DNA from: an uncultured Verrucomicrobiae bacterium
Lineage (GTDB): Bacteria; Verrucomicrobiota; Verrucomicrobiia; Chthoniobacterales; JAFAMB01
Length of the DNA stretch: 64,000 nt
NCBI GenBank assembly: GCA_963762565.1
Contig: CAVXLD010000010.1
Location: 256,001 to 320,000 of the forward strand
Reading direction: 5' to 3'
Shown: piece by piece, positions 8,968 to 61,855 of the stretch
Position numbering within the stretch: the first letter of the stretch is position 1
How the letters are laid out: each line of letters starts with the position of its first letter
Made by a program: the position numbers and the translations under genes
Notes under the pieces: model-generated
Database searches by the model: none
The model's input: only the letters and a program-made list of their open reading frames with translations
Told to the model about the DNA's origin: nothing

Positions 8968-9339
8968 ATGCTGAAGCGATCGTTTATCCTTGTTCTTTTT
9001 CTAGTCTCGTTTGTCGCACTCGCTGCGCCAGCAGCCAACGTCGAAGTCGCCAGGGTGCCCATGCCACAACTCGCACCTCTACAATGGGAACTGCTGCGCC
9101 AACAACAAGGCGGTCACTTTCATCCGCTCGCCATCGATGTGAACCTTGCCATGAGATATGGGAAAATCTTGAGCGTGAGCGTCCGCCGCGGGACCGGACA
9201 CGACGATATCGACAAGACGATTGTGAAGTGGATTGAAACCAATTGGAAAACGTATCCTTCGTTCGCAGGCGGAGACAAATTTGTGATTTCGATGAATGTC
9301 GATCCGGCTGTTCGTGAGGTTGTGTTTCGGAGGAGCTAG
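8968..9339 (+). CDS. Small secreted TonB C-terminal-like protein, paralog 1
   Basis: Signal peptide and GKILSVSVRRGTGHDDIDKTIVKWIETNW, resembling the TonB_C V..SSG..LD..W pattern. Paralogous to 9634-10080. Confidence 0.6.
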   Translation: MLKRSFILVLFLVSFVALAAPAANVEVARVPMPQLAPLQWELLRQQQGGHFHPLAIDVNLAMRYGKILSVSVRRGTGHDDIDKTIVKWIETNWKTYPSFAGGDKFVISMNVDPAVREVVFRRS

Positions 9340-9617
9340 GAGCTAGGGGTGGCGTCGCGGCTTTGGTAGAGGCTCCAGAAGAGCCCGGTGATTGACCAAG
9401 GGTTAACCGCACGAACGCCGAGAGATAATGAGCAAGGCCGATAGACGCGCCGAGCCGTGGCCCACGATATACCACGGCTCGGCGCGATCTAAGAGGTAAC
9501 AGCACGAGGTGGAGTGACGTCACTTAAAGCTTCGCTCAAACGATTGAATTAATCGGGAGCCTCGCCCCACCAAGGCAACACGCCCTCCTAACTCCTAGAT
9601 TCTAGCTCCTAGCTCCT
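9331..9617. repeat. Composite palindrome: AGGAGCT heptamer shell (G) around a family A element (9365-9571)
   Basis: Ends aggagctaggagctag / ctagctcctagctcct, central hairpin cgcgccgagccgtgg / ccacggctcggcgcg, right arm GGGAGCCTCGCCCCACC. Confidence 0.85.
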
Positions 9618-9633
9618 CTATATTGGCGCTGCT

Positions 9634-10080
9634 ATGAAAAAGAGGCTTTTTGCGCTCTCGCTTTCTTTGTCTTTCCTAGTCTCTGCGCCAGCTGCGCTGG
9701 CAGGTTATGTCCAGATTGGCAGGGTTCCTATGCCGGAACTGACTTCATCGGAATGGGCCATGATAAGGCATCAGCAAGGACCGAATCCGCAAATCATCCC
9801 TGTGGATATAAACCTCGCTGTCAATCAGGGCGTCGTCTACGCGGTCAGTATCCGCCACGGAAGCGGCTACCTGGACATCGACAACACGATCGTGAGATGG
9901 ATCGCCACCAATTGGAGAACAGACAATTGGTTCAGGGGCGGCGATGCCTATGTTGTGTCTCTGGACGTAGATCCGGTTCTTCACCATGTCGTTTTCCGGA
10001 ACAACGATGGGAATGTCAGAAACACTGTTCCTTTGATCGAAACCCTTAGAGCGGACGCCTCATTGATAAAGGTAAACTGA
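9634..10080 (+). CDS. Small secreted TonB C-terminal-like protein, paralog 2
   Basis: RVPMPEL..W..GVVYAVSIRHGSGYLDIDNTIVRWIATNW aligns with paralog 1. Confidence 0.6.
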   Translation: MKKRLFALSLSLSFLVSAPAALAGYVQIGRVPMPELTSSEWAMIRHQQGPNPQIIPVDINLAVNQGVVYAVSIRHGSGYLDIDNTIVRWIATNWRTDNWFRGGDAYVVSLDVDPVLHHVVFRNNDGNVRNTVPLIETLRADASLIKVN

Positions 10081-10146
10081 CGGCCCTATCTAGACGCCGT
10101 AGCACTGGATCGCTCGCTTCCTTCGCGGTCATCCTCGATCGGGAAC

Positions 10147-10243
10147 AAAGTAAACAGTAATCAGTAATCAGTTTCGATCAGTTTTCGAGAACTGGCCAGC
10201 CGCCAGTTACTGATTACTGGCACACTGATTACTGATTACTTTT
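10147..10243. repeat. Inverted heptamer arrays (CAGTAAT)n ... (ACTGATT)n
   Basis: cagtaatcagtaatcagt on the left, actgattactgattact on the right. Confidence 0.8.
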
Positions 10244-10283
10244 GAGATCCGCGCGACAGACTATTGATCGGCCGCCCGGGCGG

Positions 10284-10691
10284 CTACTTCTTAGCGGCCG
10301 TTTCTTTCTCCGGAGCTGGTTTCTCTTCCACCACCGGCTGATCGACCCACTCGATGTAGGCCATGGGCGCTGAATCGCTGGCGCGTGGTCCGAGCTTGAT
10401 GATGCGCACATAACCGCCCGCTCGAGATCCGCTTCTGGGCGCCACATCCGCAAACAGCCTGCGAACCGCTTCCTTTTGTCTCAAGAAGGCGAAAGCCAGC
10501 CGGCGGGCATGCAGATCGTTACGTTTTCCCAGAGTAACCATTCTCTCGGCATAAGGCCGGACCGCCTTAGCTTTTGCCAGAGTCGTCCGGATCCGACTAT
10601 GCTCGATAAGGCTGCAGACCTGGTTGGCTAGCAGCAAATTCCGATGCTCGGCCTTCCGGCCGAGCTTAATGGTTTTCTTCGTGTGTCGCAT
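10284..10691 (-). CDS. rplQ: 50S ribosomal protein L17
   Basis: MRH..KLGR..HR, RIRTTLAKAK, GGYVRIIKLGPRASDSAPMA. Confidence 0.98.
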   Translation of the reverse strand: MRHTKKTIKLGRKAEHRNLLLANQVCSLIEHSRIRTTLAKAKAVRPYAERMVTLGKRNDLHARRLAFAFLRQKEAVRRLFADVAPRSGSRAGGYVRIIKLGPRASDSAPMAYIEWVDQPVVEEKPAPEKETAAKK

Positions 10692-10697
10692 ATTAGA

Positions 10698-11869: not shown

Positions 11870-11883
11870 ATGGCGGGAAAACC

Positions 11884-12106
11884 AACCGCAGATGGACGCG
11901 GATAAGAGGTATTATCCGCAGATTACGCAGATTTCGCAGATTTCGATTCGGGGCTCTATGCTACCCAGGGTTACAGAAAACGCGACCGAGCCAGAAAGAT
12001 GTTTTCATCTGACGGATGTGCCCGGCACAAAACCGAAATCTGCGTAATCTGCGTAATCTGCGGATATTAACCTCTTATCTGCGTTAATCTGTGTCCATCT
12101 GCGGTT
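11884..12106. repeat. Family E palindrome (CCGCAGATTACGCAGATT ... AATCTGCGTAATCTGCGG)
   Basis: Long inverted arms built from 9-mer CGCAGATTA-like units; a homolog lies at 50146-50276. Confidence 0.88.
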
Positions 12107-13395: not shown

Positions 13396-15320
13396 TCGAG
13401 GTTATTCCGTTCCCCGCCCGCCTCTCCCCCTCCCTCGTTGCTGACCTCAAGCGGGCGGCAGAAGACCCGAAGGTCGAAGGGATCATCCTCGAATTTTCCG
13501 ACGCTAATGTGACTACTGAGGACGAGCTCCGTCTTTTGTTACGGGGCGATGATGTCATCCACCCGCTACGAGACACACTCCGATTGCTAGAGACGCAACC
13601 GAAGCCCTTGGTCGCTCTCATCCACCAGTCTTTGAGCGGTCTGGCCTTCGAGGTTTGTTTGGCGTGTCACACTCGCATAGTTTCAAATCCTGACGTCGCG
13701 TTTCACTGGGGGTGGTTCGATCTCGGCATATTGCCTGCCCTGGGGACTGGGCGCCGGCTTTCTCATATCGCCGGCCTTGAGAAGACGGTTCAGGTTTTGC
13801 TTTTCGGAGCGCGGCTTTCCCCGGCAGAGACCGCTGCTGAAAATGCCAAAGGCAACGATCGAGAAACCGCTGAAAATTGGATCAAAGAGCATCCGAAGCC
13901 GGTCCAGTCATGGGACGCGACCGATATCACCCGTTCGCCGCTCTCCAGTCAGGCCCTCGTCAATCGTGAGATCCTACAACACGCTTATATCCAGTTAAGG
14001 AAGCGAACCCCTGCCGGCGACGGGGCCGGGAGCTTATTGCTCCAAGCATTGCATGACGGTTTAGAACGCTCGTTCACTGGCGCGCTCCGGATAGAAAAGG
14101 CTGCGTTCCACAACGCGCGCGACCTGATGTCAACCAAGAATCGGATCTGGGTCCAAGAGCTAAGGCAGCGAGCGATCCGGCGTGCGGCCGATCAGACTGA
14201 TGCGGTCGAAGTGATCGGCGTGTTAGGCGCTGGTCTCATGGGGACTGGTATCGCGCTCAGCGCGCTGATGGCGGGACGCCAGGTGGTTTTATTCGAGATC
14301 GACGCCGAGGCAGCTAAGCGATCCGCTGCCAGAATCGAGAAAATATTAGGCCGGCAGCCTGCCGGTCAGCTCGCTGGGCTTCGTCTCACCCAGCAACTAG
14401 ACGATCTGTCCCACTGCGATTTCGTTATCGAAGCAGTATTTGAACGGTTTGACGTGAAAACCAATCTCCTCAAAAGGCTCGCTTCAGTCCTGTCGAGACC
14501 CACGGTCATCGCCTCCAACACTACCACTTTTCCGATTGCCGACTTAGCGACTGCGGTTCCGGATCCGGGCCGATTTATCGGCACTCATTTTTTCGCTCCG
14601 GTTGAGCAGATGGAGCTCTTGGAAATCATTCTTGGCCGCGAGACAACCGAAGAAACATTAAACAAAGCGTTGGCGTTAGCTAAAGCGCTCGGGAAAACGC
14701 CGGCAGTGGTTAAAGACGGCCCCGGCTTCTACACCAGCCGGGTGGTCATGGCTTACGTCCAAGAGGCGTTGTTCATGCTGGAAGAGGGCGCGAACCCAAC
14801 CTTAGTCGACCAGTGCGCTCGGAACGCCGGGATGGTGATCGGTCCTTTGGCCATGGCTGATCTTACCTCGCTGGAGTTGCTGGCTGACATTTTCCGAAAT
14901 CTACTAAAGCACGGGCGCGGTGCGGCGGCTGAGTCCGGGCGCACCCTTGAGATTCTTTCCCGGTTCCTTTCAACCGACCGCAAGGGCCGAAGATCCGGCT
15001 CGGGCATCTACGATTACCCTTCTCCATCTGGACGGCAGGAATGGCTGGGTCTGATCGACTGGTTCCCTCGTTCGGCCTTATCCGATGTCGAGATCACCGA
15101 CCGGCTTTTCTACATCCAAACCGTGGAAACGATGCGGACGTTGAAGGAAGGCATTATCGCCGAGGCCGAGACCGCCGATCTGGCGTCGGTATTGGGATGG
15201 CGATACCCGGTCTTCCGAGGCGGGACGATGCGATATCTGGAGAATGCAGGAAAAGATCGATTCGAAGCGACCCGGCATGGTTTGGAAAAAAAATTCGGTC
15301 TAAGGTTTGCATTGCCGTAG
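13392..15320 (+). CDS. FadB/FadJ-like 3-hydroxyacyl-CoA dehydrogenase with a degenerate crotonase domain
   Basis: GAGLMG, IEAVFE, SNT, HFFAPV..LLEI. Overlaps the thiolase stop as ATGA. Confidence 0.88.
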   Translation: MIEVIPFPARLSPSLVADLKRAAEDPKVEGIILEFSDANVTTEDELRLLLRGDDVIHPLRDTLRLLETQPKPLVALIHQSLSGLAFEVCLACHTRIVSNPDVAFHWGWFDLGILPALGTGRRLSHIAGLEKTVQVLLFGARLSPAETAAENAKGNDRETAENWIKEHPKPVQSWDATDITRSPLSSQALVNREILQHAYIQLRKRTPAGDGAGSLLLQALHDGLERSFTGALRIEKAAFHNARDLMSTKNRIWVQELRQRAIRRAADQTDAVEVIGVLGAGLMGTGIALSALMAGRQVVLFEIDAEAAKRSAARIEKILGRQPAGQLAGLRLTQQLDDLSHCDFVIEAVFERFDVKTNLLKRLASVLSRPTVIASNTTTFPIADLATAVPDPGRFIGTHFFAPVEQMELLEIILGRETTEETLNKALALAKALGKTPAVVKDGPGFYTSRVVMAYVQEALFMLEEGANPTLVDQCARNAGMVIGPLAMADLTSLELLADIFRNLLKHGRGAAAESGRTLEILSRFLSTDRKGRRSGSGIYDYPSPSGRQEWLGLIDWFPRSALSDVEITDRLFYIQTVETMRTLKEGIIAEAETADLASVLGWRYPVFRGGTMRYLENAGKDRFEATRHGLEKKFGLRFALP

Positions 15321-15371
15321 GGGTGACGAACTTGCCGCGAAGCGGTTAAAGCAAGGGCCGGGCGCAAAACC

Positions 15372-15493
15372 GGGAGGGCGCGCGTCCCCGCGCGCCGCCA
15401 GGACCTGCCACCGCTCAACGAATATTTCGGGTCCGCGATCACAACGGGTCCTCGACTTCGGTAACAACGGATCGCGAGGACGCGATCCCTCCC
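15372..15493. repeat. Family C REPIN-like element (122 bp)
   Basis: GGGAGGGCGCGCGTCCCCGCGCG ... GGATCGCGAGGACGCGATCCCTCCC. Confidence 0.88.
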
Positions 15494-15680
15494 TGGCGAT
15501 GGACGCACCCACGATCCAAGAACGGCCTCGGGCCAAAAAGGCGCGGGCACACACCCGAATCGGCCTCCAAATCACTGACAAAAAATCGCCAAAACAGCGC
15601 TTTTCCCCTCGGGGCGTTACTCCAAGTTACAGATTTTCGTCGAGAATCCGGGAGCGGATAGATATATTGATGGCCAGATA

Positions 15681-16874: not shown

Positions 16875-17205
16875 CGCCGTCAGCGCCGGGAACGTCGACA
16901 ACGCCGGGAAAGGGAACCTGGTGGGGCGAGGCTCCCGAAAGACCTACAGGGATAATCGGAGGCAATAAGATGACTCGACGCCGCAAAGCGATAATAGGCC
17001 GGAAATCCCGCCGAGCCGTTGTCGCCTGATGTGCCACCTTTTAGGCCTGGCCACACCATAGACCTGCGGCTCGGCGGCGCAGCCACCTTGTGCGCGTCGG
17101 GCTGAAATAAATCAGCAGGCTTTGTGAAAACACGGTCGTAGTTCGGGAGCCTCGCCCCACCAATGTTTGCCGGCCCTACCGGCGCTATTGGCATTGACGG
17201 CGTTA
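16872..17205. repeat. Composite palindrome with a family A core (16920-17161)
   Basis: Outer TAACGCCGTCA / TGACGGCGTTA; inner GGTGGGGCGAGGCTCCCGAA / TTCGGGAGCCTCGCCCCACC. Confidence 0.88.
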
Positions 17206-18883: not shown

Positions 18884-19684
18884 ATGGAGCCACCGCCTGT
18901 AGTCGTTACCATCGCCGGATCGGATAGCTCAGCCGGAGCCGGAATCCAGGCTGATCTAAAGACATTTACTTATTTCCGCGTATTTGGCCAGAGCGTCGTA
19001 ACCTGCATTGTAGCGGAGGTTCCGGGAAGGGTACAAAGGATCGAACCAGTCAGCGCTGAAGCCGTGCAGGACCAGCTCAGGCTAAGCCTGGAATATTTCC
19101 CGGTGAGCGCGATCAAGACCGGGATGCTGTACTCAAAGGAAATCATCAGCGCCGTGTGCGAGACCCTGGAGGAAATTCCCTCTAAAGTAAGACCGGCATT
19201 GGTAGTCGACCCCGTTATGGTAGCGTCCTCGGGCGATTCACTATTGCAGAAGGATGCTTTGGAGATCTATCGGAACCGTCTATTTCCTTTGGCCACGGTT
19301 GTTACTCCTAACCGTGACGAGACTGCGATTATTCACGGACGTACCGTTGAGACGGTAACGGAATTAGAAGCAATCGGCCCAGAATTGGTTCAACGCTACG
19401 GAACCGCATTCCTGCTGAAAGGAGGTCACTGGCCAGGTGATTTAGCGATCGACTATCTTGCGACGCAAGCTGGTATCACGCGCTTAGCCGAACCATTTGT
19501 CGCCGCCAAATCCACACACGGAACTGGCTGCACCTTATCAGCTGCGCTCGCAGCCGGTCTGGCTCTGGGTGACACTTTGCCGGCCGCAGCTCGCCGGGCG
19601 AAAACGTTCGTCACGCGGGCCATTGCCGAATCAATGACCTGGTCCGGCCAGCATGGTCAGGTTATGGCGCTCAAGCATTGGTGA
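18884..19684 (+). CDS. thiD: Hydroxymethylpyrimidine/phosphomethylpyrimidine kinase
   Basis: TIAGSDSSAGAGIQADLKT, KTGML, VDPVM, HGTGCTLSAA. Confidence 0.95.
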   Translation: MEPPPVVVTIAGSDSSAGAGIQADLKTFTYFRVFGQSVVTCIVAEVPGRVQRIEPVSAEAVQDQLRLSLEYFPVSAIKTGMLYSKEIISAVCETLEEIPSKVRPALVVDPVMVASSGDSLLQKDALEIYRNRLFPLATVVTPNRDETAIIHGRTVETVTELEAIGPELVQRYGTAFLLKGGHWPGDLAIDYLATQAGITRLAEPFVAAKSTHGTGCTLSAALAAGLALGDTLPAAARRAKTFVTRAIAESMTWSGQHGQVMALKHW

Positions 19685-19688
19685 GGAC

Positions 19689-19918
19689 GTGGAGCGCTGC
19701 CTCGCTTGCGAGGCCGTAAGGGGTCGCCACCCGTGGAGCGCTGCCTCGCTTGCGAGGCCGTGGTGAACAAGGATGATATGGTGCGCTAGGCGTATCGTCG
19801 GCTGCGCTCTGCAACGTGAAGAGGCACAAGTCCCAAGACAGAGCGATGACCGAAAAAGGTTTGCATCAATAAGTCGCTTTGTTCACCACGGCCTCGCAAG
19901 CGAGGCAGCGCTCCACGG
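19689..19918. repeat. Family B element with a duplicated left arm
   Basis: GTGGAGCGCTGCCTCGCTTGCGAGGCC twice, then the inverted GGCCTCGCAAGCGAGGCAGCGCTCCAC. Confidence 0.9.
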
Positions 19919-20015
19919 TCTCCGACCGCCACAAATCACAAAGTACTTCTCATTTGCCCGCCAATTCTTCCCACCTTGTTTTGTCGCCCGGCCCTCATAT
20001 ACTGCAAACACCCCC

Positions 20016-21281: not shown

Positions 21282-21284
21282 TAG

Positions 21285-21486
21285 CGAAACGGCGCACGGG
21301 CGAAACGGCGAGCGGGCGAGTCGGAGCCTTGCTGGTAGGGCGAGGCTCCGGAACGACCTGAACATTTTCGCGAAGATCAATCGCTCGACCCAATCGATCA
21401 ATGAGTTACGCCGAAATGCCGCCGAGCCGTCACCGAGCGCGTGCCATTGTTTCGCCGTTTCGCCCACTCGCCCATTCGCCGTTTCG
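21285..21486. repeat. Inverted CGAAACGG-type arrays enclosing half of a family A element (21334-21430)
   Basis: cgaaacggcg ... cgccgtttcg ends, with GGTAGGGCGAGGCTCCGGAA and GCCGAGCCGT inside. Confidence 0.8.
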
Positions 21487-23298: not shown

Positions 23299-23481
23299 GG
23301 TGATTAGTGATTGGTGATTGGATGGCAGCGGCGGTCGAATTGAATTTAGGCCCAGCACGGGGAGGGATCGCGTCCTCGCGATCCGTTTTCTACGAAGCCG
23401 GGCACGTGCTGTAACCGCGGACGAAATTACGCCTTTGGGTTCTGGCACGTCCTCGCAGCGCGCGGGGACGCGCGCCCTCCC
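23299..23481. repeat. GGTGATT heptamer run plus a family C element (23360-23481, 122 bp)
   Basis: Reverse-orientation homolog of 15372-15493 that aligns without gaps. Confidence 0.87.
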
Positions 23482-24530: not shown

Positions 24531-24563
24531 GCCTATAGAGTGCTGAACCAGTTTCCTAACCCT

Positions 24564-25589
24564 ATGCGTATCGGTATTCTCAGTATTGCCCATCTTCACG
24601 CGGAAGGATACCAGGCGAATCTAAGAGCGATTCCGGGCGTCGAACTGGTCGGGTTCTCGCATGAAAATTCTGGGGAAGGCCAAGCATTCAGCCAGAAGTT
24701 TAACGTGTCCTGGTTCCCGACCCATCGGGAGCTGTTAGCTCAAGAGTTAGACGGAGTGGTGATTTGCTCCGAGAACGCGCATCATCGCCAACTAGTGGAG
24801 TTAGCCGCGGAAGCCGGTTGCCAGATCCTTTGCGAGAAACCGATCGAGACCAATCTCGGGGACGCAGAAGCGATGAAAACAGCCTGCGAGAAATACGGGG
24901 TACAATTCATGACGGCGTTCCCCATGCGTTTTGCTCCATCCACCCAGGCTGTGCGGACCATGATCCAGCAGGGCGAATTAGGAAGCGTCTTCGGAGTGAA
25001 TGGCACCAATCACAGCGAAAATCCGAGCCGCCATCGCGCGTGGTTTGCTAACAAAGACCTGGCCGGAGGCGGAGCTGCCATGGACCACATCGTACACTTA
25101 GCGGATCTGTTACGTTGGTCTTTCCAGGCCGAAATAGTGGAGGTCTACGCGGAGCTGGATAACCTGTTTCGAGCGGGCGACCAGCAAGTGGACACCGCCG
25201 GATTGCTCCTGGTCAAACTCTCTAATGCTGTGCAAGCCAGCATCGACTGCAGTTGGAGTCGTCCGACTTCGTACCCGCGTTGGGGTCACCTGAAAATGGA
25301 GGTAATCGGCGAGCGAGGCGTCGCGGTTATGGATAGTTTCGCCCAGCATCTGACGCTGTATTCGAAGGGCGCCGGACGAAATCCCGATTGGGTCGGCTTC
25401 GGTCCCGATCCGAACCAACCAATGATTCGGGAGTTCGTAGATTCAATTCGAGAGCAACGAGAACCGTCTGTAACCTGGAACGATGGTTACCAAGCGCTAC
25501 GCGTCGTCTTAGCAGCGTACGAGTCAGCGCAGAGCAACCAGCCAGTCGGACTCGCCTTAGGCTCGTCCGAAATAGCAAATAGCAAATAG
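24564..25589 (+). CDS. Gfo/Idh/MocA oxidoreductase
   Basis: CEKP and GGGAAMDHIVH. The C-terminus and stop are encoded by the downstream repeat. Confidence 0.9.
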   Translation: MRIGILSIAHLHAEGYQANLRAIPGVELVGFSHENSGEGQAFSQKFNVSWFPTHRELLAQELDGVVICSENAHHRQLVELAAEAGCQILCEKPIETNLGDAEAMKTACEKYGVQFMTAFPMRFAPSTQAVRTMIQQGELGSVFGVNGTNHSENPSRHRAWFANKDLAGGGAAMDHIVHLADLLRWSFQAEIVEVYAELDNLFRAGDQQVDTAGLLLVKLSNAVQASIDCSWSRPTSYPRWGHLKMEVIGERGVAVMDSFAQHLTLYSKGAGRNPDWVGFGPDPNQPMIREFVDSIREQREPSVTWNDGYQALRVVLAAYESAQSNQPVGLALGSSEIANSK

Positions 25590-25810
25590 CAGATAGCAAA
25601 TAAAGGGCTGCGCCCTTCTACCCGTCTCGCGGGCGCTGCTTCGTCGCTCCGCTTCCTGCCAGACAGGCAAATCTTCAAATCGCCGATACCCAGCCGCATT
25701 AGATACACGTTTTTTAGAGTTACACTATTCCCAACGTGTTCCCGTCAAGCCCAGCGTCCAATTTGCTATCTGCTATTTGCTATTCCGGACGAGCCTAAGG
25801 CGAGTCCGGC
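25545..25810. repeat. MITE-like palindrome with ~50 bp inverted arms including AATAGCA heptamers
   Basis: cggactcgccttaggctcgtccgaaatagcaaatagc ... gctatttgctattccggacgagcctaaggcgagtccg. Confidence 0.85.
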
Positions 25811-27406
25811 CTACTCCAAGAACGGCTTCTGAGGCGGCGGTCCCCCTCTACCTTTCTTTACCTCCACATCTGACCGGTTCCACCAGCCGCCACCTAAGGC
25901 CTGGAACAGTGCTGCTGTATCCGCATAGCGATTCGCTTTGGCCACCACCAAATTAGTGAGCGCCTGGTAATACGCCTGCTCCGCGGTCAGTAAAGAAAGA
26001 TAAGCGATCGCGCCGGCTTGCAGTTGTTTTCGGGTGATATCCAAGGTCGTAGTGGCCGCTTGTTCGGCATACGCGGCTGTCTTAACCGCTTCCGCATCGG
26101 ATTGGATGGCGCGAAGCGAGTCGGCTACATTTTGGAATGCAGTGATAACCGTACTTTTGTACTGGGCCGCTGCTTGATCATAATTGGCTCGAGCGGCCCG
26201 CGTCCGGTGGAGCAGCGTGCCACCTTCGAAGATGGGCTGAGTCAGACTGGCGGCGAGCGTAAAGTAGCCCGTGCCGGGAGCAAAGAGTTGGGCAAATTCA
26301 AGCGCCTGGCTTCCGCCGTTGCCGCTCAAGTTGATATTCGGAAGCATGTTAGCGACAGCAACACCAATTTGAGCGCACGCGGAATGGAGCTGCTCCTCCG
26401 CAGCACGCACATCAGGTCGTTGGTCAACTAATTTCGATGGCAGGCTAACGGGTAGATCCTGGGGAAGCCGCAGAGCGTCGAGAGTAAACTTTTGCCAAAC
26501 CCCTTCGCCGGGGAAACGACCTGCCAATGCGGCAAGTAAGTCGCGTTGCTGGGCCAACTGTTTCTCTAGCGGAGGCAAAGTCGCCTGCACCTGAGCTAAA
26601 GCGGTTTCCTGGGTGGCCACATCCGCACCGGCGATTTGACCCAGCGTCAATTGCTTTCGCATGATGTCTAGGGCGTCGGTCGCGACCCGGATCGTTTCCT
26701 CGATCGCTTCGATTTCGCCCCGCAGCGCAGCCTCTGTGATTGCTGCAGTAACGACGTTCGAAGTTAAAGTCAGGTAAGTCGCTTCGAGCTGGTAGCGCTG
26801 GTTATCCGCTTGCGCTTGCAATGATTCCACTGTGCGCCGATTCAAGCCGAACACATCCGGAGTGTAAGAAACGCTGAGCGCCGTTGTATACAGGCTGTAG
26901 TAAGGGTTCCCCGTGTTGGCCACAGGCGTGATCGTGCTGGTCGCAGTCTTGTTTCGGCTTGGGGTAAAGTTAGCCGAAAGACTTGGGTAATAGGAGCCTT
27001 TTTGCGCCAGTACATTTTCCTGAGCGGCGCGCAGAGCGGCCTGGGCTGCCTCCAAACTCGGGTTGTCTTTTAACGCCTCGTCAACTAACTCATCCAGCGC
27101 TTCAGAATGGAAGACTCTCCACCATTGTCCCGGGATATCCAAACCTGCCACGAAGCGCTGCGATTCACCGGCTGAAACTTTGGCGCCGGTGGTTCGGCCT
27201 GCTAATCGTTCCGGCGTATAACCGTTAACTTGCGGCGCCGTTGGCCGATAGAAATTTGGTCCTACGGCGCAACCGGCCAGTATGGCTGTGAGGGCAAGCG
27301 GAAAAATTGATGCTAGCCCAAGGCTAAATCGTCCTCGTGCTCGTGCTCGTCCTCGTCCTCGAGAGAGTGTGTTGTCCCTAATGTTGTGGAATAAGGCTCG
27401 ACTCAT
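25811..27406 (-). CDS. RND efflux outer membrane lipoprotein (NodT/OprM family)
   Basis: LAGC lipobox, AVGPNF, WW..F, RPDVRAAE, LFQALGGGW. Confidence 0.92.
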   Translation of the reverse strand: MSRALFHNIRDNTLSRGRGRARARGRFSLGLASIFPLALTAILAGCAVGPNFYRPTAPQVNGYTPERLAGRTTGAKVSAGESQRFVAGLDIPGQWWRVFHSEALDELVDEALKDNPSLEAAQAALRAAQENVLAQKGSYYPSLSANFTPSRNKTATSTITPVANTGNPYYSLYTTALSVSYTPDVFGLNRRTVESLQAQADNQRYQLEATYLTLTSNVVTAAITEAALRGEIEAIEETIRVATDALDIMRKQLTLGQIAGADVATQETALAQVQATLPPLEKQLAQQRDLLAALAGRFPGEGVWQKFTLDALRLPQDLPVSLPSKLVDQRPDVRAAEEQLHSACAQIGVAVANMLPNINLSGNGGSQALEFAQLFAPGTGYFTLAASLTQPIFEGGTLLHRTRAARANYDQAAAQYKSTVITAFQNVADSLRAIQSDAEAVKTAAYAEQAATTTLDITRKQLQAGAIAYLSLLTAEQAYYQALTNLVVAKANRYADTAALFQALGGGWWNRSDVEVKKGRGGPPPQKPFLE

Positions 27407-27477
27407 TTCGGAGAAGCGTTTCAGTCATTGACGCTCCATGAGTGCTGGTCCTTTTCGAGCACAAGCACGAGCACGAG
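27328..27477. repeat. Family F hexamer palindrome (CTCGTC/CTCGTG)n ... (GAGCAC)n
   Basis: tcgtcctcgtgctcgtgctcgtcctcgtcctcga / tcgagcacaagcacgagcacga. Confidence 0.8.
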
Positions 27478-36478: not shown

Positions 36479-36505
36479 TTGAGGACCCACACGGCGAAGC
36501 TCTTT

Positions 36506-36715
36506 GGTGGGGCGAGGCTCCCGAACGTCCGGAACAGTGTGACGAAGTTTCCGGTGGTGCCTGCCCAAACGATGGTTAGGCCACGAAACGCGCCGAGCCG
36601 TGGTCTATCGTGGGCCACGGCTCGGCGCGATCTTCGTCCTTTCTCACGGACTGGGAGAGCTCTGTGCGATTTGCTTCGGTTCAATCGTTCGGACGTTCGG
36701 GAGCCTCGCCCCACC
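36506..36715. repeat. Family A element (210 bp)
   Basis: Outer arms GGTGGGGCGAGGCTCCCGAACGTCCG and a central GCCGAGCCGTGG hairpin. Confidence 0.9.
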
Positions 36716-36735
36716 AAAGATCACGCCCTTCGCAA

Positions 36736-38543: not shown

Positions 38544-38577
38544 CGGCTAATCGAAGAGATGATATTGGCCGGATTAG

Positions 38578-38833
38578 CCGCGAAGCGGCTACAGAGAATA
38601 GCCCAGGTCTTTAGGCCTGGGTATGGTCCGGGCAGGACCTCGGCCCGAAGGGGCGACCGAGGTTTAAACGCGGCAATGGTCGAAAAAGCGTTCTTCATTT
38701 CTGAGCACGTAATCTCAACACACCGTTCACTCGAAAAACACCGCTTACATTCGGCCGCCCTTTCAGGGCGAATGGTCACGGGCCTCGAACCCAGGCCTAA
38801 AGGCCTGGGCTACAATGTGTAACCGCTTCGCGG
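38578..38833. repeat. Family H REPIN-like palindrome
   Basis: CCGCGAAGCGG..AGCCCAGGTCTTTAGGCCTGGG ... CCCAGGCCTAAAGGCCTGGGCT..CCGCTTCGCGG; a fragment also lies near 15334. Confidence 0.82.
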
Positions 38834-42670: not shown

Positions 42671-42915
42671 GGAGGGGAGCCGCTTTGTAAGTTCGCAGCT
42701 CTGCCGGTTACTAGCAGGCGGCTCCCGGGAATAACCCAGCGTGACCCATTTATCTGGCAGCTTCCCGAATCAAAGGCTCCCACCTGCGGGCCGAAAAAGG
42801 TAGCGGACGCTGGACAATTCCCGGGAGCCGCTTGTTCACCACCCGTTTTGGCTACTCTTGGCATTCGACAGAACACATTGGATTCCTGAGACACATGGCA
42901 AAGCGGCTCCCCTCC
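42671..42915. repeat. Family D element (four alternating GGGAGCCGC cores)
   Basis: GGAGGGGAGCCGCTTTG ... GCGGCTCCCGGGAA ... TTCCCGGGAGCCGC ... CAAAGCGGCTCCCCTCC. Confidence 0.9.
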
Positions 42916-43765: not shown

Positions 43766-44207
43766 GTGTTGCAGCTCTATCCCAATCGTTCTCGTCCTCG
43801 TCGTCGTCCTCGTCCTCGAAAGGCGTGGCACGTTGATGCGACGACCGATTGTCCAGCGCCCCGGAGGGGAGCCGCTTTGGCGTTAATCTGTCCGCCCTCG
43901 CGAAATTCGTCTCAACATTAATCCGGCTGAAACGTGCAAAAACAGGCGGCTCCCGGGAATGACCCAGCGGTCCGCAGGTCTATTTGCGGCTGTAAACGAA
44001 ATCGGCGCCGCGGGTGAATCATCGCGCTGGGTTATTCGCGGGAGCCGCCTGATGCGACATTTAGTGGTCGGATGAGCCCTGAAAGAAACATCGCGAGGTC
44101 GCCTTGTACATGCCAAAGCGGCTCCCCTCCAGGCGTTGGACAATCGCACATCGCATCAACGTGCCACGCCTTTCGAGGACGAGAACGATTTCGTAGAGCT
44201 GCGACAC
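43766..44207. repeat. ~440 bp nested palindrome: F shell around a family D core (43863-44130)
   Basis: Long complementary arms TCGAAAGGCGTGGCACGTTGATGCGA / TCGCATCAACGTGCCACGCCTTTCGA. Confidence 0.9.
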
Positions 44208-50115: not shown

Positions 50116-50145
50116 CGATTTACGCCTGTTCCACTAAATGAAAAG

Positions 50146-50276
50146 ATCCGCAGATTACGCAGATTTCGTATTGGTATTTGAACACGCGTAATCAGGTAAA
50201 AACGCGACTCGCCCAAGACGAGCATTTCGCCGAGACCGATCCAGGCCTCGAACCGAAATCTGCGTAATCTGCGGAT
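50146..50276. repeat. Family E palindrome, inside the ABC operon
   Basis: ATCCGCAGATTACGCAGATTTCG / CGAAATCTGCGTAATCTGCGGAT. Confidence 0.88.
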
Positions 50277-50282
50277 ATAAAA

Positions 50283-51120: not shown

Positions 51121-51369
51121 TTTAGGAGCTAGGAGGCGTGTCGGGGCTCTATCGTAATCGTTCTCGTCGTCGTCCTCGTCCTCGAAGAGCGAATTCCTCC
51201 CAAATTTTACGATAGACCAGGAATTTCGACTGATGCCAGAGATTCACACGGCGACCATGCAACACAAGCCAGCTAACACGCAACTTTCGAGGACGACGAG
51301 GAGGACGAGGACGATTACGATCAAGCCGCAAACGCGCCTCCTAGCTCCTAGATTCTAGCTCCTCCTAAA
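51121..51369. repeat. G heptamer shell around a family F palindrome (51151-51321)
   Basis: taggagctaggaggcg / cgcctcctagctccta; ATCGTAATCGTTCTCGTCGTCG / CGAGGACGATTACGAT. Confidence 0.85.
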
Positions 51370-51434: not shown

Positions 51435-51728
51435 TTACCGGCGCCAGCCGCCGCGCCAACCCCCATGCCAGCCACCGCGCCAACCTCCACGCCAGCCCCA
51501 GCCGCCACGCCAGCCCCATCCGCCGTGCCAGTAGCCCCAGTAAGGACGGCCCCAGCCCCAACCACCATACCAGGATGGGTAGGGATAGTAGGCCGGCCCA
51601 TAAGACGGGCCTCCATAGTAAGCAGGGGCAGGGGCAGCCGAAACGGCTACTCCCGCGTCAGCTTTGCTAGGGACTAAGCAGAAAAGACCGGCGACAGCGA
51701 GGATCAATAACAGAAACCTCTTCATCAT
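51435..51728 (-). CDS. Small secreted Gly/Trp/Tyr/Arg-rich repeat protein
   Basis: Signal peptide ending ADA; tail of GGW(R/H/G) repeats. Confidence 0.7.
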   Translation of the reverse strand: MMKRFLLLILAVAGLFCLVPSKADAGVAVSAAPAPAYYGGPSYGPAYYPYPSWYGGWGWGRPYWGYWHGGWGWRGGWGWRGGWRGGWHGGWRGGWRR

Positions 51729-51906
51729 TTTTACTCCTCTAATTTCCATCAAACTAATATCAATAAGCTTGCCTGCGGGCGAAGGTGACCCCTCGATCAT
51801 GACAGGCGGGCCACTCAATGAGACGTGATCAGTCACATTCCAGTTACAGCCGGACAAACGAGGACGATTTACGATAGAGCGACGCCCGCTGCTCCTCCTG
51901 GCTCCC

Positions 51907-52198
51907 AGTGTCCTGTCCCATAAATAACGTGGCTTTCGCCGTCGGTCAGTTGGCTGTTTTTCAAGGCGCGAGCGAAGCGCCCATATCTGGTTCATACGGG
52001 TCGAGCGAGCAACGCGGAAAAACAGCCAACTGGCCACGGCCCGGACGGTTGCGATGAAAATGGGCCGGCGGCTGCGTTGCTCGTCGGTTACGTATCGATC
52101 TAGATATGCGCCCTCTACCGCCAGTCCGGCTCGGACCGCCTTGCCGGCGGCCCATTTTGATCGCAACGAAAGCCACGTTATTTATGGGACAGGACACT
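51907..52198. mobile_element. MITE with perfect 32-bp terminal inverted repeats
   Basis: AGTGTCCTGTCCCATAAATAACGTGGCTTTCG and its reverse complement; CCAG/CTAG junctions. Confidence 0.8.
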
Positions 52199-52227
52199 AG
52201 ATTCTCGATCCTAGCTCCTCTTTTCAC

Positions 52228-52256
52228 TTGACGCCCCAGCCCGAGAACAGCATCTT
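52228..52256 (+). promoter_or_regulatory. Candidate rpmB promoter
   Basis: TTGACG-N17-CATCTT. Confidence 0.4.
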
Positions 52257-52282
52257 TCCGCTCTTTTCGAAAAAGGGGTTCT

Positions 52283-52546
52283 ATGTCTAGAGTCTGCAGC
52301 ATCACCGGGGCAAAGCCCAGCAAGGGGCACATCATCCATCGTCGTGGTATGGCCAAGAAAAAAGGCGGCGTGGGCCAACATGTCACGGCAAACACACCAC
52401 GGCTTTTTGTACCGAATCTTAAGACTCGGCGGATCTGGGTACCCGAGCTCGAGCGTTTTGTAACCGTGAAGTTAAGCGCGCGCGCGCTCAAAACCGTCGC
52501 CAAAAACGGCGCCTATCAAACTCTCAAAGCAGCCGGCTTAGTTTGA
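52283..52546 (+). CDS. rpmB: 50S ribosomal protein L28
   Basis: MSRVCSITG, KKKGGVG, RLFVPNL, LSARALKT. Confidence 0.95.
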   Translation: MSRVCSITGAKPSKGHIIHRRGMAKKKGGVGQHVTANTPRLFVPNLKTRRIWVPELERFVTVKLSARALKTVAKNGAYQTLKAAGLV

Positions 52547-53555: not shown

Positions 53556-53584
53556 GTGTTGTTAGGGCAAGGCTGCCGTAATTT

Positions 53585-53816
53585 GGTGGGGCGAGGCTCC
53601 GGAATAGCCGAAAAAGCGACGCAGCGCAGAATAACGTTTCGTCGGCATATCGGAAGCAACACCTGAAAACTGCCGAGCCGTGGGTCGCGCAACGCACGGC
53701 TCGGCAGCTTCTAGGTGTTGCTCACTCTAGACCAACGAAACATTTTCTGGCGCTGCGCTTACCGAAGGGCTGTTCCGGAGCCTCGCCCTACCAACTTTGG
53801 CGGGCCTCGCCCTACC
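53585..53816. repeat. Family A element (53585-53792) with an extra right-arm piece
   Basis: GGTGGGGCGAGGCTCCGGAA ... GCCGAGCCGTG/CACGGCTCGGC ... TTCCGGAGCCTCGCCCTACC. Confidence 0.9.
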
Positions 53817-53819
53817 TAT

Positions 53820-55619: not shown

Positions 55620-55644
55620 AGCGCGAAACGGCCAAGGATAGGAG

Positions 55645-55987
55645 AGGAGTTCAAGGAGTTCAAGGAGTTCAAGAACAGGTAGGGCGAGGCTCCGGAATCG
55701 GGGGTCGCCACCCGTGGAGCGCTGCCTCGCTTGCGAGGCCGATGGTGAGCAAGGGGAAATGTGACTCAGGCTAAAAAATGTGGCTGCGCTCTGTATGCTG
55801 GCGTGATTTCGGTGTTTGGTTTCTCTAGGTCCCTAAGCGGCGAAAATTGCACACGCTCAATAGCGCTGGCAGCCGACAAGCCTGCGACATCTGTGCCCCT
55901 GCTCACCATCGGCCTCGCAAGCGAGGCAGCGCTCCCCGGGTGGCGACCCCTATCCCAGGAGCCTCGCCGTACCGGTCCTTGAACTCC
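55645..55987. repeat. Four-layer nested palindrome (AGGAGTTCA 9-mers > A arms > GGGGTCGCCACCC > B arms)
   Basis: Each layer has its inverted partner on the right in mirrored order. Confidence 0.9.
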
Positions 55988-56018
55988 GTCCCCCTCTAGT
56001 GGATGCTGCCTGCCGCTA

Positions 56019-58161: not shown

Positions 58162-59196
58162 ATGCAATCGCGCCACAACAAATTGAGGATAGGAATTGTC
58201 GGTGCCGGAAGTATCGTTAAAAAGCGCCACCTCCCCGCACTGAATCAGATCGAAGACGTCAAGATTGTGGGGGTCTGCAACTCCAGCTACGAAAGCTCAG
58301 AAAAGTTCTGTTCCCAATTTCTTCCAGAGGCGAAGCCTTACGCGAATTGGGCTGAATTGCTCGCTGAACCGGACATTGATATCATCTGGATCGGGACCTC
58401 TCCTTACTTACACGCCACGATAGCGGTTTCGGCGCTTGAAGCGGGGAAACATGTGTTCTGTCAGGCTAGGATGGCAATGAACCTAGTAGAAGCCGAAGAG
58501 ATGTGCGCCGCTTTGCAGCGACATCCGCATCTGGTCACCATGCTTTGCCCACCGCCGCATGGACTCCGCGGGAGCCGATTGATCCAGAAACTGATGGCCG
58601 ACGAGTATGTCGGCCGGCCGCATCACCTCCGTTTACACAGTTTTAGCGCAGAATATCTGGACCTGGACGCTCCTCCGCATTGGCGACAACGAGATGAATA
58701 TTCGGGCCTCAATGTCCTCACACTCGGGATCTACGCTGAAGTTCTTCAGCGTTGGTTCGGCCCGATTTCCAGTCTCGTGGCTCATCGAAAAACGATCGCG
58801 CCTTTGCGGCAGACCTACGAGGTCCGAATCCCGGATATGGTGACAGTCCTTTGCACCTTCACTAACGGCATAGAAGGCGTTCTTGAATTCAGCGGGATTG
58901 TTCCGCTTCCTGCACCTGACCGATTAGAGCTTTATGGTCATCGAGGAAGGTTGGCGTACGACTTTTCAAAGGACGTGATAACTGGAGCCCAGTTGGGTGA
59001 TTCTGCGCCGGCTGCGATTCCGGTCCCACCAGAATTAGAGCAAACTTGGCGGGTTGAAGCCGATTTTATTGCCGCCGTCCGGTCTCCTGGCGGAATCTTG
59101 CCTCAACCCGGCTTCGGCGAAGGGCTGCAATATATGAAGGTGGTCCAGGCGGTCGCCGATTCCATCGATCAGGGCCGGGAAATCGAAATAGTGTAA
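58162..59196 (+). CDS. Gfo/Idh/MocA oxidoreductase (CQARM variant)
   Basis: IVGAGSI, and GKHVFCQARM in place of EKP. Confidence 0.85.
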   Translation: MQSRHNKLRIGIVGAGSIVKKRHLPALNQIEDVKIVGVCNSSYESSEKFCSQFLPEAKPYANWAELLAEPDIDIIWIGTSPYLHATIAVSALEAGKHVFCQARMAMNLVEAEEMCAALQRHPHLVTMLCPPPHGLRGSRLIQKLMADEYVGRPHHLRLHSFSAEYLDLDAPPHWRQRDEYSGLNVLTLGIYAEVLQRWFGPISSLVAHRKTIAPLRQTYEVRIPDMVTVLCTFTNGIEGVLEFSGIVPLPAPDRLELYGHRGRLAYDFSKDVITGAQLGDSAPAAIPVPPELEQTWRVEADFIAAVRSPGGILPQPGFGEGLQYMKVVQAVADSIDQGREIEIV

Positions 59197-59580
59197 ATCG
59201 TAATCGTTCTCGTTCTCGTCGTCGTCCTCGTCCTCGAAGGGTTTGTGAACGCCGGACGAGCTTGCGGATTCCACCCGCCCTGGAGCCCTGGAGGGGAGCC
59301 GCTTTATAATATTGCAGCTCTATCGGTTGGCAGCAGGCGGCTCCCACGAACGTCTCCACGTGATGCAGTTCTATCGCGAGTCGCGTTCTCACGGCAACGG
59401 AACAGATACGATGGGGAAACATCACGCTGGGTAGTTCCCGGGAGCCGCCCGCTAACAACGTTTGTCGGCCAGATCCTGCCCTGAGGCGAATATCGTGAGG
59501 TCGCCTCGCACGTGCCAAAGCGGCTCCCCTCCAGGTCCTGGGCAGCTACACGCGTTGTCCCCAAACCTTTCGAGGACGAC
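59196..59580. repeat. F shell around a family D core (59290-59532)
   Basis: Same architecture as 43766-44207. Confidence 0.88.
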
Positions 59581-59600
59581 AACAGCTCGCCGACGCTCGC

Positions 59601-60926
59601 CTACTCCGGCGCCACAGCCGCCGGCACCATGATGGCGTCTCGCATCCCGTGCACAATCTTTTTGTCCGGCGGAACAATGGTCGCTAGAACGCCTCCCAGA
59701 ACCACGTCCCGTGGAGAAACCACGAAGTAATAAGGGCAAAGACGAACCCTTCCGCGTAGAACCCGGATTTCGCCGCTTTGTACATCCAAGTATTTCTGCT
59801 CGAAAAGCCCTCCCCGATAAAAACGCTGCAAAATATACGGATTCGTTGAAAACGCTGCTAACGCCTTATCGATTTGCTCGGCCCAAATGTGGTGTGGCAA
59901 ATCGGGTGCGATATGGACGCCTCGGCTGCCCCAAGCCCGCTCCGAGAACCCGCTGATTTTGAGAACGAGTTCCCGTTCCTTTTGGCTGAACTCCTTGAGC
60001 TCCTTCCAATCTTGAACTTCTAGACCCGGGATCACGGCATTATGCGGCAAAGGGGTTGGATCCAAAATCCAGGTGTGAGGAAAGAAGCGGCGCAACAACC
60101 GCCAGTGCCGGTCACTAAGTTCGCGACGCCAGAACTGGGTTAACGGCCTCGACCAGAACAAACCAAACGCCAACTTTTCTTCTAAGAAAGGTTTTAGCGG
60201 CGGGGTGACTTGCAGGTTCCCTTTATGGATACCGTCAAACAGTTGTTCTCTGTAGCGCAGCTTACCAAGATCGAACAACTCGAAGAAACGATAGACCGGC
60301 ACATCTTGAGGAAAGGCCCAATCCTCCGCCCGGACGACTTCCCTGTCCGAGCTTCCCAGTGAGCGCAACCGCTCCACCAACCATTGCATTTCCGGCCGAT
60401 AGGTCGCTGACTCATCGGACACCGCGATGACTCCTTTTGGAAAAATCCGCCCAAACCCATTTACCATCCCGTTCCGGGTCCCGATCACGTCGAACCCTAG
60501 GTCGCTATACGTCTGATTCAGCCAGTCTGTAAGACCAATACCCCCCGGAACCGAATCTAATTCGGTGATGGTCCAACCCTGGTCAGTGAGAATGATGTCC
60601 GGCCGAATCACTGCGGGAAGGACATCGGGATTCGCGCGCGCCGCTCGAATAAGGTCAGGAGGTTTGCCAGCTTCAAAGTACTCCTTGATCCAACTCGGCT
60701 TTTTGCCCTTACAGCTTTGGAAATACAAACGGTTGGTAGCCCGGACGAATTTAAACAGCCAGTGCCCGAGGCGTTCCAGCTGGTCAACCACATCCGCAGA
60801 AAGGAGAAATGGCTCCGGAGAAACCAACCATTCTTTACCGGCAAACAAACCGGTGGCGGGCATGCTTTGCAGAACCGCGCGCGCCCGCTCCAGCTCGACG
60901 GAATTCAATGTGCTTTCGGCACTCAC
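59601..60926 (-). CDS. Uncharacterised circularly permuted ATP-grasp-like protein
   Basis: IRPDIIL..ITELDSVPGG, LVLKISGFS..WGSRGV, YILQRF. Confidence 0.6.
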   Translation of the reverse strand: MSAESTLNSVELERARAVLQSMPATGLFAGKEWLVSPEPFLLSADVVDQLERLGHWLFKFVRATNRLYFQSCKGKKPSWIKEYFEAGKPPDLIRAARANPDVLPAVIRPDIILTDQGWTITELDSVPGGIGLTDWLNQTYSDLGFDVIGTRNGMVNGFGRIFPKGVIAVSDESATYRPEMQWLVERLRSLGSSDREVVRAEDWAFPQDVPVYRFFELFDLGKLRYREQLFDGIHKGNLQVTPPLKPFLEEKLAFGLFWSRPLTQFWRRELSDRHWRLLRRFFPHTWILDPTPLPHNAVIPGLEVQDWKELKEFSQKERELVLKISGFSERAWGSRGVHIAPDLPHHIWAEQIDKALAAFSTNPYILQRFYRGGLFEQKYLDVQSGEIRVLRGRVRLCPYYFVVSPRDVVLGGVLATIVPPDKKIVHGMRDAIMVPAAVAPE

Positions 60927-61519
60927 GCGAGTTTCTTTAGCGCTCGACGCACGAGCTCATCCGTCTCCAATTGCTCACCGGCATCGTGCACCTCGCGGAG
61001 CGCCTTTTGCGCTTCAACCTGTTTAAAGCCGAGCGAAATTAAGGCCAATACCGCATCATTCACTTTTGAAGCACCATCATGCCGGCCGGCAGCCGCCGCT
61101 TCCCAGGCTGCTGCGACACCGACCTTATCTTTCAATTCAAGAACAATTCGTTCCGCAGTCTTTTTCCCGAGACCGCTGATCCGGGCCAGCGCGACGATAT
61201 CATGATTCACAACCGCGGACTTGAATTGGGAAACACTCATACCGCTAAGCACCGCCAAGGCGAGCTTTGGCCCCACCCCAGTGACGTGTTGAAGTAGCAA
61301 ACGGAACAAGTCCCTCTCCGCAGAGCTCAAGAAACCAAACAAAAGATGCGCGTCCTCTCGTACCACCAAATGAGTCAACAACCGTACCCGCTGACCCACG
61401 GGAGGCAGATGTTCAAAACTGGAGAGTGGAATTTGCGCTAAGTAACCAACCCCATGTACAGAAACGATGACTTGAGTTGGCCAAGCCTCGGCTAGCTCAC
61501 CATCCAGAAAAGCAATCAT
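60923..61519 (-). CDS. ruvA: Holliday junction branch migration protein RuvA
   Basis: MIAFLDG, GVGY, VREDA..LFGF, GVGPKLA, GLGKKTAERIVLELKDK. Confidence 0.97.
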   Translation of the reverse strand: MIAFLDGELAEAWPTQVIVSVHGVGYLAQIPLSSFEHLPPVGQRVRLLTHLVVREDAHLLFGFLSSAERDLFRLLLQHVTGVGPKLALAVLSGMSVSQFKSAVVNHDIVALARISGLGKKTAERIVLELKDKVGVAAAWEAAAAGRHDGASKVNDAVLALISLGFKQVEAQKALREVHDAGEQLETDELVRRALKKLA

Positions 61520-61576
61520 GTTGAGCTATAGAAGTACCCGGTCGCTTCGAAACTTCAAATGCCACAACACGCTTAA

Positions 61577-61855
61577 CGTTCGGCGTTTGGCGTTTGGCGC
61601 TCGGCGTTCGGCGTTTGGCGTTCGGCTTTCTGCACTTCGTTCAGGTCCTCCAGATGAACGCGGGCCCATCGCCGGGGAGGGATCGCTGCCTGTCCGACAT
61701 AGCCTTCTCTTCCTGGTTTCTTTTCTCCCGGCTTTGGCGACGTCGGATCCTCGCGATCCGTGGTTCGCGGAGCTGAGGGTCCTTTTAAGCCAGGGATTAA
61801 ATTACGCGCAAAAGCTGACAACGTCTTCCCGGCGCGCGGGGACGGGCGCCCTCCC
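61577..61855. repeat. Seven CGTTYGG-type heptamers plus a family C element (61675-61855) carrying a family I insertion (61687-61747)
   Basis: GGGAGGGATCGC-TGCCTGTCCGAC..GTCGGA-TCCTCGCGATCC. Confidence 0.87.

Follow-up and report, generated by a model that had tools for sequence, protein, structure and literature searches.

The analysed window, 64,000 nt from the genome of an uncultured Verrucomicrobiae bacterium (C10:256001-320000, i.e., contig CAVXLD010000010.1, of a 6.12-Mb, 15-contig assembly with 54% G+C and 93.7% completeness), carries numerous palindromic repeats in its intergenic gaps, some of them concentrically nested. Our analysis points, with a probability of about 0.6, to two kinds of gene-less hairpin repeats, one of which, doublets resembling REPINs (inverted pairs of repetitive extragenic palindromes, REPs), would enter hairpin loops by means of REP-associated tyrosine transposases (RAYTs) and thereby build layered palindromes. 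The rpoA gene and its neighbours placed the organism in the Chthoniobacterales, Verrucomicrobiota, with metagenome-assembled genomes (MAGs) of that order as the closest matches; a cyanobacterial origin was rejected on this ground and because HIP1 occurred only 463 times. The gene content of the window was ordinary, consisting of housekeeping and transport genes. Site coordinates without a contig prefix are window positions; G000 is the source genome, G001-G005 are genomes of the same genus (congeners), and L-numbers denote individual sequence stretches, such as L001 and L003 of the nearest relatives.

The first kind comprises sister families of REPIN-like doublets with inverted GGAG/GTAG-tagged arms (A/C, E/D, B, H/I and J), each presumably mobilised in trans by its own single-copy RAYT of the Y1 HUH type encoded elsewhere, to judge from genes lying between the arms of the respective families. 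Hairpins of the second kind number about 660, and their stems consist of 6-9-nt words in tandem arrays that face each other in inverted orientation. HUH-Y1 enzymes of the IS200/IS605 type of insertion sequences (IS) act on single-stranded DNA (ssDNA), and RAYT elements would move as single strands like their IS200/IS605 relatives. The loop of an extruded hairpin is ssDNA and may thus be a favoured landing place for the Y1 machinery: a REPIN or a whole RAYT unit would land within another REPIN's loop or that of an array hairpin, and the original loop would usually be replaced for the most part during or after the entry. Some composites (F arrays > linker > E/D doublet, where > denotes outside) might then multiply as units.

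Order and separability of the layers

The comparison of orthologous sites, which carries the most weight here, yielded both the empty and the partly filled alleles which the first-pass annotation of this DNA had suggested looking for, with outer layers conserved and inner content different, indicating that the true layering is separable and recent. Relatives keep the outer arrays around centres that are different or missing; the outer layers are thus older than the inner ones. At 55620-56018, three congeners kept the GGAGTTCAA arrays around a unique 100-nt stretch (G002), an E/D doublet (G003) or another array pair (G004). The orthologues of 53556-53819 were an A/C element in G002 and G004 (homologous, with a diverged interior), 8-mer arrays around J in G003, 8-mer arrays around E/D in G005 and an empty 56-nt site in G001. 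The CGCAGAT-type arrays at 50116-50282 recurred in G003; the same site had GCGCAAAG-type arrays in G002 and G005, a more degenerate CGCAAAG/CACGAAG-type word pair in G004 and 69 nt without arrays in G001. Upstream of rpoA (11886-12103), L001 and L003 shared two outer word layers, and only L001 had an E/D doublet in the centre.

Three soil MAGs had RpoA sequences 98% identical to that of the source, with synteny kept and a DNA identity of about 80-90%. Entire elements were missing from several sites of the relatives: the gap orthologous to 9329-9634 was about 85 nt long without any element in L002 and L003, the 15320-15563 element was missing from L001 and L003 (61-nt gap in L001 by blast coordinates), the gap corresponding to 16913-17201 in L001 had 81 nt (blast coordinates) and no element, and the 19686-19976 site was empty in L001, with 19 nt between the blast blocks. 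Strain variation was found in an E/D doublet whose left half (42671-42822) was replaced by 5 letters in contigs from two independent studies, one soil metagenome run each (matching flanks of 155 and 102 nt), leaving a REP singlet. Metagenome contigs mostly ended at the repeats, and joints with sides below 31 nt (all but one) were disregarded.

Genome-wide, the families were derived de novo by 14-mer counting and greedy assembly followed by motif mapping, and the tandem arrays (7464 short arrays) were found with Tandem Repeats Finder. A search of the genome with the arms, with the nesting order tabulated, gave arrays as the outer partner in 63 of 68 array-REPIN containments and as the inner one in 5. 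REPINs lay inside array pairs in 63 cases versus 12 within 150 nt outside, and REPINs of different families met as one inside the other in nine cases and as neighbours in one. Family A occurred inside at least eight array types, often abutting the arrays. The E/D doublets contained no other family (0/165) and were flanked by F arrays on both sides in 11 cases, on one side in 23 and on neither in 131. The proposal that the families target each other's centres is therefore favoured by the separable layers and by the inside-to-outside numbers, but it has to be modified in that the centre was usually replaced rather than simply split.

Repeat families, RAYT genes and array hairpins

Genome-wide motif copies numbered 524 for A (GGKRGGGCGAGGCTCC), 381 for E (GGAGGGGAGCCGCTTTG), 298 for D (CAGGCGGCTCCCGGGAA), 247 for B, 244 for H, 241 for I, 144 for C and 85 for J (CGGTAGGGCGAAAATCTCGGCGCGCC). 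A, E, D and C were nearly always present as convergent pairs with tight spacing: about 203-205 convergent pairs versus 19 divergent and 21 tandem for A, 165 versus 11 and 8 for E, and 109 versus 5 and 4 for D. B was mostly found in tandem runs with a 43-nt period (55 tandem versus 52 convergent), rather resembling bacterial interspersed mosaic elements, and the distinct GGAG hairpins H and I were joined in 166 H-I doublets. The distribution appeared genus-bound, the E motif having 168-353 copies in each of the five congeners and 0-2 in 25 further genomes from the same family and order.

Two of the supposed layers turned out to be parts of single elements. E (GGGAGCCGC) is complementary to D (GCGGCTCCC) and D was present in 156 of the 165 E pairs; E and D are therefore opposite strands of a single REP stem tagged with GGAG, with a loop of either 27 nt or roughly 90 nt, and E-D...D'-E' forms a REPIN-like doublet rather than a nest. 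The F>D order given earlier for 43766 and 59196 passes over a layer, since E sits between F and D. Similarly, A and C belong to a single element as its outer and its inner repeat, because the RAYT gene of the autonomous copy sits between two C halves, and the C hairpin in gene-less A/C copies marks the position of the lost transposase gene; 129 of the 203 A pairs had no detectable C. The view of layers as separate elements thus applies to arrays and REPINs and not to E>D and A>C. The GTAG/GGAG-like tetramers ascribed to the REPs were recovered: E/D, B (GGAG + CGCTGCCTCGCTTGCGAGGC) and H/I (GGAG + GGATCGCG/GGCGCGCG) are GGAG-tagged hairpins, and the A arms carry GTAG/GTGG but form no hairpin of their own. 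Several distinct repeat families are indeed present, but to call them unrelated was an overstatement: a GGGAGCC core is common to the A', D' and E arms, and the transposases of A and E/D have 33% identity (expectation value 5e-25).

The window itself was correctly described as free of a mobilising enzyme, as none of the 12 places in the genome matching Pfam Y1_Tnp and none of five tblastn matches fell inside it. Outside the window, genes flanked by the family arms proved to be RAYTs, one of the candidates proposed for this role, for E/D, A/C and J in the source genome and for B in two congeners, which supports the assignment of several families as REP/REPIN-like and RAYT-associated. The E/D RAYT (153 aa, C1:579808-580269, motifs PDHIHAF and YVRNNPV), the second-weakest of the 12 Pfam Y1_Tnp matches, stands between E D E D and D' E' (C1:579570-580374), an arrangement repeated in congener G003 (L137) with four and two-and-a-half E/D units as flanks. 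The A RAYT (C10:17378-17833, motifs MPDHLHLF and YMFMNPV; layout A A ..C-half - gene - C'-half.. A', C10:17164-18009) was found by a scan of open reading frames (ORFs) between distant A arms and gave no Pfam Y1_Tnp match at an expectation value of up to 0.01; another RAYT scored beneath the cut-off of that profile (21.9 versus 23 bits). The 17 ORFs scanned between distant A arms included seven ordinary ones (DUF520, OsmC, CutA1, AAA_26, DUF3016, cupin and YceD), the E/D RAYT with a sub-threshold Y1_Tnp score and nine frames without a family; the frames of L150 and L152 between A arms looked like translated repeats rather than genes.

A tblastn search with the A and E/D proteins detected the J RAYT (C7:542253-542699), enclosed by inverted J-family arms that match perfectly over 31 nt, and a split fourth paralogue on C4; each RAYT type had a single locus in G000. 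B arms stood on both sides of a Y1 gene in G004 (L144) and upstream of one in G003 (L140), whose contig ends just downstream of the gene. For both RAYTs tested, the best match among solved structures was the Escherichia coli TnpA-REP 4ER8 (expectation values 6.7e-8 and 1.1e-6) with aligned HUH and Y..NPV motifs; the match to the IS200-type 2F4F had a value of 0.17 only. Five classical Y1 genes bore small REPs of their own, and inverted repeats sought at the flanks of the congener Y1 genes L141 and L142 were not found. The Rfam match RF01687 (Acido-Lenti-1) at 38576-38621 (37.6 bits) is one arm of the 38578-38833 palindrome, and the same motif was found inverted at both sides of a classical Y1 gene in L085 (1351-1396 and 1984-2029) and at one side in L084 (1368-1412), so that, by its sequence context, this 'small RNA' looks like the REP of a RAYT in the source genome.

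Two further observations concern Y1 genes. An entire RAYT-REP unit of the CGGAGGGGCGTTGCATTC family was bracketed by inverted GTGAAAG heptamer arrays in L138 (1226-2016; G004:C350), placing autonomous units inside array hairpins as well. Four ORFs of 352-357 aa in G000, with extra length of roughly 200 residues, contained a Y1_Tnp domain (C1:531701-532027, C5:482843-483169, C12:565110-565436 and C3:501577-501867): those on C1 and C3 had inverted repeats on both sides (AGGGTCACGTCT and AAAAGGGGTCAGTCAA, respectively), that on C5 a repeated TATAGACGCGACCCC on one side and that on C12 none that could be seen, and one of the four was directly followed by four tandem B REPs.

The array hairpins are of a different kind. 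Adjacent arrays of the same unit formed 492 inverted versus 54 direct pairs of 118 unit types, and the inverted pairs rose to 663 once non-adjacent partners were allowed. The units were 6-9 nt long, the commonest ones (AATGACA, CGTCCT, GGTGATT, AATAGCA, GGAGCTA and CGCAGATTA) had no tracts of three or more G, one unit occurred at up to 51 loci, and the median arm length was 30 nt. No motif of families A-I was present in 426 of the 492 adjacent pairs. Loops of at least 30 nt mostly matched no other loop (313/432), and 268 of the 432 had no other match in the genome, the few low-copy matches being mostly loops of nearby hairpins; these numbers spoke against the loops as captured genomic fragments. 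The unique loops were not hidden palindromes either, with an ssDNA fold z-score of -0.26 versus -0.22 in controls (n=181). Within types having at least five pairs, the polarity of the word relative to the loop agreed with the majority of its type in 353 of 362 pairs. A hairpin-templated symmetrisation of the arms was rejected, the likeness of left and right arm lengths within a unit type being 0.606 versus a permuted mean of 0.586.

Support for the mobilisation of these outer layers by RAYTs, implied by the first-pass annotation, was not obtained, and the array hairpins are hardest to explain in that they combine a fixed polarity with unique loops. Since polarity is fixed per word type while most loops are unique, the arrays might not be transposed copies at all: on a speculative and rather improbable variant, the hairpins would be written in place by a directional process and their loops then exchanged by Y1 RAYTs, amounting to a genus-wide loop-cassette exchange which remodels the layered palindromes.

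Competing explanations

Several results weigh against entry of REPINs into hairpin loops. Nesting was the minority state, with 93 multilayered loci among 1155 outermost loci scored with strict motifs; both numbers are rough and the former is an undercount, because three of the five nested loci of the window were missed owing to their degenerate arms. The ratio of REPINs inside to outside the arrays is confounded, because the flanks are often coding and insertions there are not tolerated. A plain insertion does not predict that the leftover around A inside arrays has a median of 23 nt, compared with a median loop of 103 nt. The REPIN model gives no account of array hairpins with mostly unique loops yet fixed polarity; a B- or H/I-flanked RAYT was not found in the source genome (93.7% complete, 15 contigs); and neither a transposition event nor a circular intermediate or a target motif was seen, the evidence for mobility being all comparative.

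The replaced rather than interrupted centres would also result from homologous recombination or gene conversion between loci sharing array arms, which would swap the centres with no loop-targeted transposition. Such an exchange, the best surviving of the alternatives but still unlikely in our opinion, would fit the recurrence of one array unit at up to 51 loci and the linker common to some F>linker>E/D composites; however, the arms are short and vary in word order, one inner family is found, often flush against the arrays, in at least eight different types of them, and both the REPIN-in-REPIN cases and the first entry into an array type would be left unexplained. An outward growth, with the inner element being the oldest and words added around it symmetrically by slippage and hairpin-templated copying, agrees with arrays abutting the A termini (about 11 nt on each side), with the fixed word polarity and with the array-bracketed RAYT-REP unit of G004. 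It is disfavoured, and must be considered quite doubtful, because orthologous sites (three of them) share outer arrays between species around differing centres; moreover, the arm lengths showed no extra likeness.

REPs serve as terminators, mRNA stabilisers or supercoiling-type sites in enterobacteria, and the location of hairpins within operons and flush with stop codons would be expected if the host retained them as such signals, the layering reflecting selection for long stems. A host function of this sort seems very improbable here because orthologous sites were empty in relatives and the unit types turned over among species at one site; besides, the hairpins occurred equally between divergent genes (11886-12103 upstream of rpoA; 55645) and their loops were no more foldable than controls. 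Finally, the layered loci might all be copies of one multi-part element. This is correct for the E/D and A/C pairs and seemingly for the 43766-44190 F>E/D composite with its many roughly 400-nt matches at 70-76% identity in congeners, but as a general account it is already refuted by the E/D doublets without F arrays (131/165), the A pairs without C, the array pairs without a REPIN (600/663) and the different inner elements found in one outer array at orthologous sites.

Window sites and comparison with known systems

In the window, repeat finding detected 50 pairs of inverted repeats with less than 200 nt between them. With ssDNA folding against mononucleotide shuffles, 18 of the 28 intergenic gaps folded at z < -3 (14 at z < -5), compared with 3 of 28 evenly spaced 300-nt controls at z < -3. 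The hairpin sites were located between convergent, divergent and same-strand genes alike, operon interiors included. Direct reading of 17 loci confirmed the five nested loci reported at first, in position and, with the exception of F>D, in content.

Table. Hairpin repeat sites of the window (> denotes outside; z, fold z-score)
Position	Structure	z
9330-9618	GGAGCTA heptamer arrays (9330-9348 / 9586-9618) > A arms (degenerate left 9362-9376, right 9554-9574) > C hairpin (9446-9486)	-6.3
10149-10243	Short-looped pair of AATCAGT heptamer arrays between convergent genes	-6.3
11886-12103	Outer CGCAGATGGA-type words (CGCAGAT) > CGCAGATTA arrays (11917-12062) > unique centre, upstream of rpoA	-12.4
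15373-15492	I/H REPIN-like doublet, GGAGGGCGCGCGTCC ... reverse complement of GGAGGGATCGCGTCC	
16920-17161	A-family doublet with degenerate C-like centre	-5.5
19683-19927	B cluster: tandem B REPs (19683-19717, 19722-19760) facing inverted B (19888-19922)	-7.7
21284-21486	GGCGAAAC-type 8-mer array pair around a single A arm near 21330	
23361-23480	H/I REPIN-like doublet	-3.8
25547-25808	Small hairpin CGGACTCGCCTTAGGCTCGTCCG > AATAGCA arrays > unique 160-nt centre	-8.3
27329-27477	CTCGTG/CTCGTC hexamer array pair (F-like) between efflux genes	
36501-36720	A/C element: A arms, C hairpin in the middle	-9.1
38578-38833	Inverted pair of the REP matching Rfam Acido-Lenti-1	
42671-42915	E/D REPIN doublet, strain-polymorphic	
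43766-44190	CGTCCT-type arrays (F) > conserved linker > E/D doublet (E..D..D'..E'; E pair 43863-44130)	-15.3
50146-50276	CGCAGATTA array pair with unique 85-nt loop, inside ABC-transporter operon	
51121-51365	GGAGCTA arrays > linker > CGTCCT-type arrays > unique centre	-11.3
53563-53814	Outer A-like half sites > A/C element; entire interior an imperfect palindrome	
55645-55990	GGAGTTCAA 9-mer arrays > A arms > B REPs > centre	-13.4
59196-59590	CGTCCT-type arrays > E/D doublet, one arm short, one long (E pair 59290-59532)	
61577-61857	GGCGTTY heptamer array, left side only, beside H/I-type doublet; last site	

Arrays overlap or adjoin the ends of two ORFs: ORF 24540-25589 terminates within the AATAGCA array (arm region 25570-25601), and the stop of ORF 58162-59196 coincides with the start of the CGTCCT-type array at 59196-59240. 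A repeat of about 300 nt at 51907-52200 contains an inverted repeat of its own (52048-52167) and overlaps both ORF 51435-52166 and ORF 51961-52503; its 100-nt consensus had 67 genome copies, many copies of 80-93% identity were present in all five congeners and its summed depth in soil metagenomes was very high. ORF 5537-6499 encodes four GloVer (Gloeo_Verruco) choice-of-anchor repeats and has no relation to the hairpins. Homopolymers were unexpectedly common throughout the genome, with 680 14-mer positions in runs of at least 14 A and 349 in runs of at least 14 C, perhaps reflecting long tracts or an assembly artefact.

The claim that the nesting hierarchy is undescribed was too strong, since REPINs inserted into or next to REPINs (Bertels and Rainey, 2011; PMC3116915) and convergent heptamer arrays (Rehm et al., 2015; PMC4692102) are on record; for the concentric hierarchy itself, one narrow literature search (REPIN nesting and RAYT) found no published description. 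The Xanthomonas GGGAATC heptamer arrays form convergent intergenic pairs (70 and 75) and possible stem-loops, and this convergent-pair geometry is the only feature shared with the arrays described here: the Xanthomonas arrays consist of one G-rich, quadruplex-forming unit, in contrast to 118 unit types, mostly without G tracts, with fixed polarity, unique loops and other repeats nested inside. GTAG repeats are known in Verrucomicrobia from Opitutus terrae (Di Nocera et al., 2013; PMC3733652). REPs are also targets of IS (Tobes and Pareja, 2006; PMC1525189; ISPpu9, PMC12288879), in which case palindromic repeats likewise act as landing sites; the incomers there are full IS with other transposase types, unlike the gene-less hairpin repeats and RAYT units of the present genome, whose result is a symmetric layered palindrome.

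Inverted ends are present, as would also be expected of miniature inverted-repeat transposable elements of DDE transposons; given the RAYT association, such an origin need not be invoked for A/C, E/D, B and J, but it might apply to the array hairpins. A possible parallel is offered by the small dispersed repeats and STRR heptamers of Nostoc, the subject of work by Elhai et al. in 2008: these very small repeats, said to be cyanobacterial sequences of 21-27 nt with no RAYT link claimed, are reportedly embedded in tandem heptamers and nested in their own copies. As a warning for annotation, much of the intergenic 'structure' in soil Verrucomicrobia, at least one Rfam small RNA motif included, would be selfish repeat DNA.

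The closest known relatives are the REPIN-RAYT systems (PMC3116915; 4ER8), with which the described families have in common inverted doublets of GGAG/GTAG-tagged arms as the predominant unit, one cognate HUH-Y1 gene per family between its own arms, a genus-level distribution and singlet remnants. Unlike the classical systems, the elements here are 200-290 nt long with 27-90-nt loops within each REP, at least five sister systems are present together, their RAYTs have diverged so far that one escapes Pfam Y1_Tnp, and concentric layering is common. Work on REPIN-RAYT has usually dealt with proteobacterial doublets of about 100 nt that belong to one to three families. In the genus described here, at least five sister systems with giant arms coexist, and replacement of one repeat's loop by another repeat can be seen in natural alleles, which makes the genus a comparative system for the insertion target of RAYTs, including whether hairpin loops serve as such. 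The unusual features are thus the number of sister RAYT systems, the arm size, the hundreds of tandem-word hairpins and a layering documented by natural alleles.

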